Source: Escherichia coli (GTDB lineage Bacteria > Pseudomonadota > Gammaproteobacteria > Enterobacterales > Enterobacteriaceae). From it: a DNA stretch of 64,000 nt. The first letter of the stretch is position 1, and every line of letters starts with the position of its first letter. The notes under the pieces were generated by a model. The model was not told the origin of the DNA, did no database searches, and saw only the letters and a program-made list of their open reading frames with translations. Where the stretch lies: NCBI RefSeq assembly GCF_003334405.1, contig NZ_QOWM01000005.1. One strand, given 5' to 3'. Both the position numbers and the translations under genes were made by a program. Below are positions 51,609 to 59,452 of the stretch, piece by piece.

Positions 51609-52559
51609 TCAGCCTGCGATAGCACCAACAACCTGTAATACTTCGTCACGCGCCTGTTCTGGTTTTTCACTGTCAAGCCAGTGAACCCCTTCCCAACCAC
51701 GCAGCCAGGTTATCTGCCGCTTCGCCAACTGTCTCGTGGCGCAAACACCTCGATAAACCATTTCATCGTATGAGATTTCGCCTTCAAGGTAAGACCACAT
51801 CTGGCGATAACCCACGCAACGAATGGAAGGCAAGTCCGTATGCAAATCTCCTCGGGCAAAAAGCGCCCGGACTTCTGCTTCAAAACCTGAAGCCAACATC
51901 TGATGAAAACGCTGCTCAATGCGTTGATGGAGCAGTTCACGGCTCGCCGGGGCGATGGCGAACTGATGCACCTGATACGGTAGAGCGTCTCCTGACGTTT
52001 GCGTCAGTTCCGTTAAAGTTTTACCCGAAATGAAAAAAACTTCCAGTGCCCGGGAAAGCCTTTGTGGATCATTTGGATGAATCCTTGCTGCCGCAACCGG
52101 ATCTACCTCCTGAAGTTGACGATGCAATGACTCCCAACCTTGCTCTGCCGCCTGTTGCTCAATTCTGGCCCGTACTTCCGGGTCTGCCGACGGTAGCGGC
52201 GACAACCCTTCCAGCAATGCCTTGAAATACAACATCGTACCGCCCACTAACAGTGGGATCCGCCCCGCCGCGGTGATATCGGCCATTTCCGCCAGCGCAT
52301 CGCGGCGAAAATCAGCAGCCGAGTAAGCCTGCGACGGATCGCGAATATCCAGCAATCGGTGCGGCGCGGCGAGTAACTCTTCAGCGTTCGGCTTCGCCGT
52401 CCCGATATCCATCCCTTTGTAAATAAGGGCAGAATCAACGCTTATCAACTCTACTGGTAAAATTTTACGCAGCTCAATGGCTAACGCCGTTTTACCGGAG
52501 GCCGTCGGCCCCATCAAAAAAATCGCCTTAGGCAGGCTCGCCTTACTGATATCACTCAT
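51609..52559 (-). CDS. miaA: tRNA dimethylallyltransferase MiaA
   Basis: 316-aa [35 protein letters not shown]... (P-loop); start overlaps the mutL 3' end. Confidence 0.95.
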
Positions 52560-54399
52560 CTTTCAGGGCTTTTATCGCCGGATGTAAATCAACAGATTGT
52601 AACAGACCACCCGGCGGCGTTTTCACAAGTTGCGGACATAACCGTTCCACGTCCGCCAGCAGGGTTATGGCCTGTGCCATTGACCACTGCGCATGTTCGC
52701 TCATCAGATTTCGTGCAATCCACTGCGCAATATTGCCAGGTTCGAATACGGACTGCTTCGCCAGGTAGCCTATCAGTTCAGGAATCAAGATTTGTAAATT
52801 TTGTTGGCGTAAGGGTAAAGGCACTGCCCTGATGGTCACATGCTGTGCATCTGACTGGAAATCAATACCCAATTCCGCTAGGGCAGACTGCGCTTTTTCT
52901 AATGCCGATTTTTCTTCGGCAGAAACTTTTAGCCGCAACGGAATCAGCAGCGGCTGGGCGCAAACGGGCGCTTCACCCGGCGTCAATTGTGCCTGACGCA
53001 GCCAACGTTCTGCCACTGGCAAGGATAAAAGTGAAATGTTGCCGTCGCGCTCCAGCAACGCACAGTCGGAATGGACGATAGTCAGTACCCGACCAAAACT
53101 CTGACTGTTCGCCGCAAGTGCAGGTTCCTGCGGTTCCGGCGCTTTTAATTTTTGCATCGGCGCGGGCGTTTGCAAAAGCTGGCGATACACTTCACCTTGC
53201 TGTTTCTGGTAGCCTGGCTGCGCATTCGGCCAGGGGGCAGCCGGACGACTGCCTGATGCTGGCGCAGGAGTGTAGCGCGGAGCTACCGGCTCACGAGCTG
53301 CCGGTTCTGCAAAGTGATTGCGCCCCGCCGCCACGCGGTTTTCCGGAATGGAACGCGGTGCAGGTTGGGGTTCATCGTCCAGCGGTAGCGGCGTTTCCAG
53401 TTGCTGTTGTAGCACGCTCAGCACGCCCTGATAGATAAAATCATGCACCAGACGCGACTGATGGAAACGCACTTCGTGTTTGGCGGGGTGCACGTTGACG
53501 TCCACCTGATGTGGGTCGATCTCCAGATACAACACAAATGCCGGTTGCTGATCGGCCCCCAGTTTGTCTTCGCAGGCCTGGCGGATCGCGTGATTGATCA
53601 GGCGATCGCGCATCATGCGACCGTTCACGTAGCAATACTGAATTTCTGCCAGTGCGGGCGTGGTGTGATTTGGATCGGCCACCCAGCCGCGTAGCGTGAG
53701 ATCGCCGTGTTGCCATTCAATCGCCAGCGCTTGTTCAAGAAAAGCGGTGCCGCAAATCGCGCCTAAGCGCCGTTCTTTTTGCCCGCCTTCCGGCACTGCG
53801 CGGTACTGACGCACAATTTTACCGTTATGCGACAGGTTGATCGTGACGTCGAAACGCGCCAGCGCAATGCGGCGGATGATCTCATCAATGTGGTTAAATT
53901 CGGTTTTCTCGGTGCGCAGGAATTTGCGCCGCGCCGGGGTGTTGTAGAACAGATCCAGCACCTCCAGCGTCGTCCCCACAGGATGCGCCGCCGGTTTTAC
54001 CGTCACGTTCATATCGCGCCCTTCGGCATAGGCCTGCCAGGCTTCCTGCTGTTCTGCGGTGCGTGAAGTGAGCGTCAGGCGGGAAACCGAACTGATACTC
54101 GCCAGCGCCTCACCGCGAAAGCCCAGGCTGATAATGGCTTCGAGATCGTCCAGAGAGGCGATTTTACTGGTGGCATGACGAGCCAGCGCCAGCGCCAGCT
54201 CATCTTTTTTGATACCGCAGCCGTTATCACGAATGCGGATAAGTTTCGCCCCACCGCGTTCGATATCAATATCGATACGCGTCGCACCTGCATCGAGGCT
54301 GTTTTCCACTAGTTCTTTGACTACCGACGCAGGTCGCTCGACCACCTCACCTGCGGCAATCTGGTTCGCCAGTTGTGGCGGTAAGACCTGAATTGGCAT
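52552..54399 (-). CDS. mutL: DNA mismatch repair protein MutL
   Basis: ATG (54399-54397) gives [38 protein letters not shown], 615 aa as recalled; track ORF begins one codon upstream at TTG. Confidence 0.95.
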
Positions 54400-54408
54400 C
54401 AATCGTCC

Positions 54409-55746
54409 TTAGTTTGGCAGCGTGCGATCTGGCGTCGTCACCGTACTGGCAGTTTGTGCCGTTGCACCCTGCGGCGCAGATTGCATCGGATGCGCAAGGA
54501 AGTAATTGCGCAGGCCTTTGTAAATGGCTTCTGCCAGCTGTTGTTGGTAATCGTCGCTCGCCAGCAAACGTTCTTCGCTGTTGTTGCTGATAAAACCGGT
54601 TTCGACCAGTACTGATGGGATATCCGGCGAGCGCAGAACGCCAAGGCTGGCGTGTTCTGGTCGACGTTTATGTATTTCGCCAATGCGTTGCAACTGACTG
54701 ATCATACTGGTCGCTACATCATACCCTACCCGCTGGGAATGACCGAACTGTAAATCCAGCACCGCCTGGCTTAAATAGGGGTCAGACTGACTGTTCGCCA
54801 GCACATCACCCGCCCCACCCAGCAGCTCCGACTGTTTCTCGTGCTGCTCCAGCCAGCTGGCCATTTCACTGTTGGCGCGACGGTTAGAGAGCACCCATAC
54901 GGAAGCGCCAGTCGCACTGCGGTTCGGTGCGGCATCAGCGTGAATCGACACGAGGAAATTGGCGTTTTGCTTACGTGCCACATCACTGCGCCCCATCACC
55001 GAGATAAAGTAATCCCCGTCACGGGTTAAAACGCCTTTAAACATCGGATCGTCATTGAGCAAAGTACGCAATTTACGCGCGATGGCGATGGTGACATTTT
55101 TCTCCCGCGTACCACCGGGGCCGATAGCGCCAGGGTCCTGACCGCCGTGTCCGGCATCAATAGCGATGATAATTTTATCGCCAGTGTTAGCCGTCGCGCG
55201 CGCTGCCGGACGCGTTACCGTATTACTGCTGATAACACCCGTAGTGCGGTTACTTTCCGTTTTAAACGGATTGCGCGCCGGTTCGCTGACGCGCGGTGCG
55301 ACAACCGCAGGCGTTTCAACGCGTTTCGCAACCACGGGCGGCGGAGGAGGCGGTGGCGGCACATCGGCGTTAATCGTAAAGACGACAGTGTAATTGCTGC
55401 CATTCTGCCGCTTCACCGCTTCGGTTTTACCGTTTTCGGTAAGATCGACCACCAGCCGTAGCGTTTGTGCATCTTTAGGCGTTCCAGAGCGAATCGCCTT
55501 CACCAGATTATTGCCGCTGAACAACAACGGCAGTCCCTGAATCACGCCCGTTTGTTTGATATCGAGCGCCACGGTGCGTTTGCTTTGATGGCTAAACGCA
55601 TAATCAGGATCGCCAATAAAACTCAACGTTATCCGCGCCTGTTGATTACCGTTAGAAACCTGAATATCAGAGAGCGTCGCGGCACCCACCGGCGTGCACA
55701 GCAGCAGCAGCGTCGCTACCAACCAATTTCTGATGCGATACATCAT
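54409..55746 (-). CDS. amiB: N-acetylmuramoyl-L-alanine amidase AmiB
   Basis: ATG (55746-55744) with AAGGTGG upstream gives [23 protein letters not shown], 445 aa as recalled; contains a poly-Pro linker. Confidence 0.93.
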
Positions 55747-55764
55747 CCCGCCACCTTTCAAAGG

Positions 55765-59152: not shown

Positions 59153-59228
<76 letters not shown>

Positions 59229-59264
59229 TTGGGTGGTCTGTGCTTTGCAGCACTTTTCAAATTT

Positions 59265-59340
<76 letters not shown>

Positions 59341-59376
59341 TTGGGTGGTCTGTGCTTTGCAGCACTTTTCAAATTT

Positions 59377-59452
<76 letters not shown>

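Follow-up and report, generated by a model that had tools for sequence, protein, structure and literature searches.

The mutL locus and its hexanucleotide tract

The window (the whole stretch of 64,000 nucleotides of Escherichia coli that we analyzed) carries a mutL gene on the minus strand at positions 52552-54399 (ORF 52555-54399 without the stop codon). The gene is intact and in the three-copy state, and encodes 615 amino acids followed by a stop codon. Its product matches the NCBIfam equivalog model NF000948 over residues 1-613 with a score of 1018.7 bits (cut-off 701), and three Pfam domains were recognized: HATPase_c_3 at residues 24-120 (E = 1.4e-13), DNA_mis_repair at residues 214-330 and MutL_C at residues 440-564. 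The N-terminal 349 amino acids are 100% identical to the crystallized N-terminal fragment of E. coli MutL (1BKN/1B62). Based on the ORF list and on the RefSeq annotation of E. coli loci, mutL is flanked by hflX, hfq and miaA on one side and by amiB, tsaE and nnr on the other, and the gene order miaA-mutL-amiB-tsaE was found in the E. coli genomes whose loci were fetched. Judged by its sequence matches, this gene is a true mutL orthologue. The neighboring AmiB (54409-55761, minus strand) contains a run of eight prolines (PPPPPPPP), and the amiB CDS is 1338 nt long in most of the fetched loci and 1332 nt long in strain 377323_2f.

Within mutL, the plus strand reads GCCAGCGCCAGCGCCAGC at positions 54182-54199. 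This corresponds to three copies of GCCAGC, or (GCTGGC)x3 on the coding strand, and the original prediction was exact on this point. Tandem Repeats Finder (TRF) reports a period of 6, 3.0 copies and 100% matches. On the plus strand, the first GCCAGC is preceded by acga and the last one is followed by tcat, which makes extension impossible on either side. This perfect and slippage-prone repeat is the sole perfect tandem repeat of the 64 kb window with at least three copies of a unit of 4-9 nt, and a hexamer repeated three times was found in none of 300 dinucleotide-preserving shuffles of the window sequence. When the tract is considered as raw sequence, chance is excluded by a wide margin. Over the 78 nt that surround the repeat, the sequence does not differ from that of K-12 MG1655.

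Read in frame from the ATG at 54399, the tract corresponds to codons 68-73 on the minus strand (54181-54198), with an offset of 1 nt relative to the repeat as written. L68, L70 and L72 are all encoded by CTG, A69 and A71 by GCG, and A73 by GCT; these codons are preceded by GAT (D66) and GAG (E67) and followed by CGT (R74) and CAT (H75). This frame was supported by protein alignment and by DNA alignment with the two- and four-copy alleles described below. The tract had been predicted to encode LALALA in the ATPase domain of MutL within an intact reading frame, and both statements hold: L68-A73 lie inside the Bergerat fold of the GHKL ATPase domain (HATPase_c_3, 54040-54330, minus strand), and the match to NF000948 is full length.

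On the coding strand, a run of six adenines (54205-54210, minus strand; AAA AAA, K64 and K65) precedes the repeat by 5 nt. In Salmonella, the equivalent A6 run of mutL was considered a second candidate slippage site, and an allele locked at 'AAAAAA 190-195' is listed by Chen 2010 in Table 2 (PMC2955026). A slip of 1 bp in this run would cause a frameshift in mutL. In addition, the repeat search of the window identified a lone copy of the 10-nt motif CGCCAGCGCC at 54100-54109 (minus strand), which encodes A98, L99 and A100. This copy is located 81-87 nt from the hexanucleotide repeat and is in frame with it, and recombination between the two would remove the ATP lid in frame. The 9-mer CGCCAGCGC (GCG CTG GCG, Ala-Leu-Ala) is present in four copies in mutL, at positions 53722, 53857, 54100 and 54187 of the window.

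Other roles of the site were considered and rejected. DNA folding of each strand yielded z-scores of -0.59 and -1.20 for a hairpin at the tract, which is no better than shuffled sequences and rules out hairpin-assisted slippage. An RNA element was ruled out since Rfam matches only three tRNA-Gly genes located 5 kb away, and an alternative feature was ruled out by the plus strand, which has no credible ORF across the site. The three tRNA-Gly(GCC) genes (59153-59452, minus strand) are identical tandem copies with a spacing of 112 nt (TRF period 112, 2.7 copies, 100% matches), and this trio looks like the glyV-glyX-glyY cluster of E. coli.

Structural setting and effect of gaining or losing one unit

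An AlphaFold model of MutL built from the single sequence reached a pLDDT of 32 and was discarded; an AlphaFold2 model based on an alignment of 63 sequences was used instead (mean pLDDT 85, pTM 0.84). In this model, residues 65-73 form a helix and LALALA constitutes its last two turns. Directly after this helix, residues 76-94 (54118-54174, minus strand) present a pLDDT below 50. We read this segment of the model as the flexible ATP lid, also on the basis of Table 2 of Chen 2010 (PMC2955026), where the repeat is described as sitting in the region that forms the lid over the ATP pocket. In the set of 63 diverse MutL proteins, no variation occurs at L68, at A69 or at any residue from A71 through I80 (a stretch that includes the RHATSKI motif), and L70 is conserved in at least 90% of them. 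This conservation is partly obtained by construction because these proteins were chosen for carrying the LALALA motif.

These observations are consistent with the following mechanism. During replication, the three identical 6-bp units could mispair out of register, and one unit would then be gained or lost in frame, yielding LALALALA or LALA. Helix 65-73 appears to be followed directly by the flexible ATP lid and by the RHATSK motif, which is invariant, and a change of two residues in this helix would therefore displace the lid and impair the binding and hydrolysis of ATP. We infer that a helix longer or shorter by two residues turns and displaces the whole downstream part of the protein, thereby misplacing both the lid and the RHATSK motif. 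Mismatch repair would be lost, the mutation rate would rise approximately 100-fold and the cell would become a mutator. Because the mutator change is itself a change in repeat length, a second slip could bring back three copies, so that the state would be reversible. Our analysis shows the tract with its frame, domain and place in the structure, as well as the two- and four-copy alleles of natural and collection isolates; the mutator phenotype, the ATP-lid defect and the reversion come from the literature.

This literature is extensive. A mutator phenotype has been reported for both the gain and the loss of one unit (PMC5793043, PMC9376063, PMC7523724, PMC3477136). The primary paper on the mutL repeat is that of Shaver & Sniegowski 2003, as described in PMC3477136 and also cited in PMC2955026 and PMC5793043. 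In the long-term evolution experiment (LTEE), population Ara-2 went from three to four copies of (TGGCGC) at 2,250 generations, and the reversion to three copies, which was fixed at 42,250 generations, brought back a near-ancestral mutation rate; population Ara-4 went from three to two copies at 7,250 generations (PMC7523724). In evolution lines of K-12, LALALA became LALA twice independently within ~100 generations, and the rate of mutation to rifampicin resistance was increased 83-fold as the mean of four candidate mutL/mutS hypermutator alleles (PMC9376063). According to Wei 2022 (PMC9376063), which refers to Pillon 2013 on this point, one LA more or less impairs ATP binding. All collection isolates of NCTC86, Escherich's strain, carry L68_A69del and are mutators, and their mutational spectrum is of the mismatch-repair type (PMC5793043). 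Finally, the 6bp-delta-mutL allele, its reversion and the corresponding 'locked' alleles have been described in Salmonella LT7 (PMC2955026). The original prediction had stated that this motif was reported as a source of mutator alleles, and these studies are of precisely that kind.

The closest known system is mutL of E. coli B in the LTEE, whose repeat is written as (CTGGCG or TGGCGC)3 (Shaver & Sniegowski 2003; Maddamsetti & Grant 2020). The gene, codons 68-73, the unit (in another phase) and the three-copy wild type are all matched in the window, and the Ara-4 and Ara-2 alleles match the two- and four-copy alleles that we found in genomes. The only difference is that the tract of the window is 18 nt long, with GCT at A73, whereas it is 20 nt long in E. 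coli B, B2 and O157. In the mutL/6bp-delta-mutL 'genetic switch' of Salmonella Typhimurium (Gong 2007; Chen 2010), the orthologous position, GCTGGC x3 and LALALA are shared with the window, and one unit is lost reversibly by slipped-strand mispairing; the species is different. In-frame changes in repeats also alter protein function in ahpC (TCT4->5) and in the repeat tract of tolA in E. coli (PMC3477136). Those changes alter or tune the function of the protein, whereas a change in either direction abolishes that of MutL.

Three copies had been taken to represent the functional state, in agreement with the intact 615-aa MutL and with the wild-type number of the published systems. The mutL gene of the window is an ordinary functional allele. 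Since its count is three, the strain is predicted from its sequence to be repair-proficient. The interpretation of the repeat as a slippage hotspot is correct and has already been published in full. The mutL repeat is among the best-documented mutator routes in E. coli and Salmonella, and mutators of this kind adapt faster, including to antibiotics.

Copy number across E. coli genomes

As queries against 5,426 complete E. coli genomes, we used synthetic two- and four-copy loci with flanks of 40 nt, for which the identity bands separate cleanly. The four-copy query matched one genome with at least 99% identity, 5,418 genomes with 90-95% identity (three-copy length, with a gap of 6 nt) and seven genomes with 80-90% identity. 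Reciprocally, the two-copy query yielded seven, 5,418 and one genomes in the same three bands. The three-copy length is thus found in 5,418 genomes, two copies in 7 records and four copies in 1. Alleles with one or five copies would add members to the 80-90% band, and none was found among the 5,426 genomes. An invariant copy number across isolates had been named as evidence against the original prediction; eight genomes deviate, so that this objection fails.

The variant alleles were checked base by base in the fetched loci, where the annotated MutL is 613 aa long with two copies and 617 aa long with four copies. The four-copy allele, (GCTGGC)4, belongs to strain ST648, isolated from a pleural effusion in Beijing (NZ_CP008697.1; 617-aa MutL). 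NCTC86 carries (GCTGGC)2 with a 613-aa MutL, and assemblies of its lineage account for five of the seven two-copy records (CP019778, LR217818, OZ489144, LT601384 and B-2207, the last of which has a miaA variant in common with CP019778). The remaining two, both with (GCTGGC)2 and a 613-aa MutL, are 377323_2f from human faeces (NZ_CP039404.1), whose mutL background allele is unlike that of NCTC86, and W137 from urine in Kunming (NZ_CP163067.1), which differs from NCTC86 by its genome size and its nnr gene. The variants represent four independent lineages (the NCTC86 group, W137, 377323_2f and ST648), with three contractions and one expansion. The natural frequency of variants is roughly 0.1%, i.e., four lineages in 5,426 complete genomes. 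Scans of metagenome contigs for alleles identical to the two- and four-copy ones of E. coli gave no match, a negative result that carries little weight.

From the allele alone, ST648, 377323_2f and W137 are predicted to be mutators, and we found no report of this in the literature searched. Their proteins are annotated in RefSeq as normal MutL. At the level of annotation, a count of two or four copies would serve as a flag predicting a mismatch-repair-deficient strain.

One could argue that these copy-number variants are tolerated polymorphisms with a fully functional MutL. The alleles are indeed in frame, their products are annotated as ordinary proteins, and the three strains are clinical or faecal isolates that are evidently viable. 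However, the published genetics and biochemistry give mutator phenotypes in both directions, the NCTC86 isolates bear the mutational signature of mismatch-repair deficiency, the residues involved are invariant or nearly so in the motif-selected set of 63 MutL proteins, and a frequency of only ~0.1% fits counter-selection. We consider harmless variation to be extremely improbable. It is also very unlikely that the variants reflect errors of sequencing or assembly at the repeat. Short repeats are prone to miscalls, particularly in long-read assemblies, but the deletion of NCTC86 is found in five independently made assemblies and in an independent report (PMC5793043), a clean in-frame change of 6 bp is unlike the typical homopolymer error, and PCR with Sanger sequencing has validated the same events in experimentally evolved lines (PMC9376063).

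The sequence around the repeat is itself polymorphic. When the 78-nt query was used, 2,778 genomes (approximately half of E. coli) presented 1-3 mismatches, and these differences are located in the flanks; 13 divergent genomes were left unlocated by this query, of which 7 are extra members of the 90-95% band and 6 had no match. The perfect tract extends to 20 nt, with GCG encoding A73, in representatives of B2, O157:H7 and one further lineage. The window carries the 18-nt allele of the K-12 type, with GCT at A73, and about half of E. coli carries the 20-nt tract with GCG. None of the E. coli lineages sampled shows a change at the five internal wobble positions, whereas the wobble positions of I54, C61, D66 and A73 vary. 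Eight records on which mutL-amiB was found are labeled as plasmids. These replicons are 0.37-4.9 Mb in size and non-mobilizable, which argues against a plasmid-borne mutL, and they are probably mislabeled or split chromosomes.

Codon usage and the perfection of the tract

The repeat has been viewed by Chen 2010 as a 'genetic switch', i.e., an evolved contingency locus kept perfect by second-order selection for a few reversible mutators. In the reading that we favor, its perfection mostly follows from a conserved LALALA peptide being spelled with a locally preferred CTG-GCG string, and is a by-product rather than an adaptation for switching. A scan of the genome collection with a degenerate peptide pattern yielded at least 120 species with a LALALA-containing peptide. 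Among the matches listed, the tract is perfect with a period of 6 over 18 nt or more in 29 of 120 species; these include many genera of Enterobacteriaceae, other Enterobacterales (Edwardsiella, Pantoea and Acerihabitans), and unrelated lineages of Beta- and Gammaproteobacteria (Noviherbaspirillum, Sulfuricella, and Burkholderiaceae and Chromatiales MAGs). The recurrence of perfect tracts in such distant lineages that share the peptide favors the by-product reading. The exact repeat was said by Chen 2010 to occur only in Salmonella, Escherichia and Shigella (PMC2955026). Our results contradict this statement, since perfect tracts of at least 18 nt are also found in Enterobacter, Citrobacter, Kluyvera, Cedecea, Pluralibacter, Siccibacter, Edwardsiella, Pantoea, Noviherbaspirillum and Sulfuricella. 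Together with the frequency estimated in our survey, this wider range leaves the overall picture unchanged.

We then compared the number of perfect tracts to several expectations. Based on the mutL-wide usage of Leu and Ala codons in each species, 3.95 +/- 1.94 perfect tracts are expected vs 29 observed in the 120 species listed, an apparent sevenfold excess over simple codon usage. A null that preserves phylogeny, built from other conserved Leu/Ala columns with similar codon bias, yields 17.3 +/- 4.5 vs 31 observed among the matches listed. At the six LALALA columns, CTG and GCG have frequencies of 0.54-0.65, values that are also spanned by the remaining conserved Leu/Ala columns. In E. coli, CTG-GCG represents 30% of Leu-Ala pairs vs 19% expected. 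In the genes of the window, GCGCTGGCG encodes 7 of 21 ALA tripeptides and CTGGCGCTG encodes 5 of 17 LAL tripeptides, when ~7-10% would be expected from single-codon usage. Outside the tract, mutL itself uses GCGCTGGCG for three of its six ALA tripeptides (positions 98, 179 and 224), which shows that GCG-CTG-GCG is the usual mutL spelling of Ala-Leu-Ala. This codon-context bias raises the expected number of perfect tracts ~3-10-fold, and it may or may not cover all of the residual excess. Once the peptide is fixed, a perfect tract is not very improbable in E. coli: chained frequencies from small samples put its probability at roughly 5-20%. We conclude that the peptide and its codon context appear to suffice for the tract and that a selected switch is not needed. 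Overall, we are highly confident that the tract is the classic hexanucleotide repeat of E. coli mutL, with three copies as the wild-type functional number, a slippage mechanism, and a perfection that is probably for the most part a by-product of codon use.

Several lines of evidence nevertheless point toward selection for switching. The reversible 3->4->3 dynamics of Ara-2 have been termed phase variation (PMC7523724), synonymous 'locking' of the repeat lowers the mutability of Salmonella populations (PMC2955026), perfect tracts exceed expectation even with matched columns, and the internal wobble sites are invariant in the sampled E. coli lineages next to variable flanking ones. The repeat also resembles the classical contingency loci of Haemophilus, Neisseria and Campylobacter in being an intragenic repeat whose change in length toggles function reversibly through polymerase slippage. 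These loci, however, typically possess many units, and the mutL tract (3.0 units, 18 nt) is too short for high-frequency switching; its switching is orders of magnitude rarer, and in non-mutator strains Chen 2010 went through more than 10^4 colonies without detecting any (PMC2955026). Unlike in the classical loci, the change is in frame and damages the fold rather than causing a frameshift, and mutL is a housekeeping repair gene rather than a surface antigen, without clear evidence of selection for the repeat. Moreover, variants were limited to 8 of 5,426 genomes, five of which are one culture-collection strain, codon frequencies at the six columns are ordinary, and the same string spells 29-33% of ALA and LAL in E. 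coli, which makes the chance expectation several-fold higher. We therefore regard an evolved contingency locus as unlikely.

A related idea is that the perfect tract is actively maintained, either by selection for evolvability or by homogenizing cycles of 3->2->3 and 3->4->3. If this were true, a conserved switch of the mutation rate, and not an accident of codon usage, would have left its trace in the wide occurrence of the tract across Enterobacterales and, separately, in some Betaproteobacteria. Unit 1 is identical to unit 2 in 44 species and to unit 3 in 28, and unit 2 is identical to unit 3 in 26, where 13 would be expected; these counts are confounded by the context of A73 and by phylogeny. 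Identity is in general excess, but the non-adjacent units (28) equal the adjacent units 2 and 3 (26), so that the comparison, under the same confounding, yields no adjacency-specific signal and no clear signature of homogenization, which also weighs against a contingency locus. Active maintenance by either route appears quite improbable to us, and codon use remains the preferred explanation of the perfect tract. Two MAGs of Hydrogenophilales and Burkholderiales (L091 and L100) carry TTGGCC, TTGGCC and TTGGCG in one case and TTGGCT, TTGGCT and TTGGCG in the other. In units 1 and 2, these two species use different Ala codons, but each keeps one codon for both units, a pattern that could hint at unit homogenization or be a coincidence.
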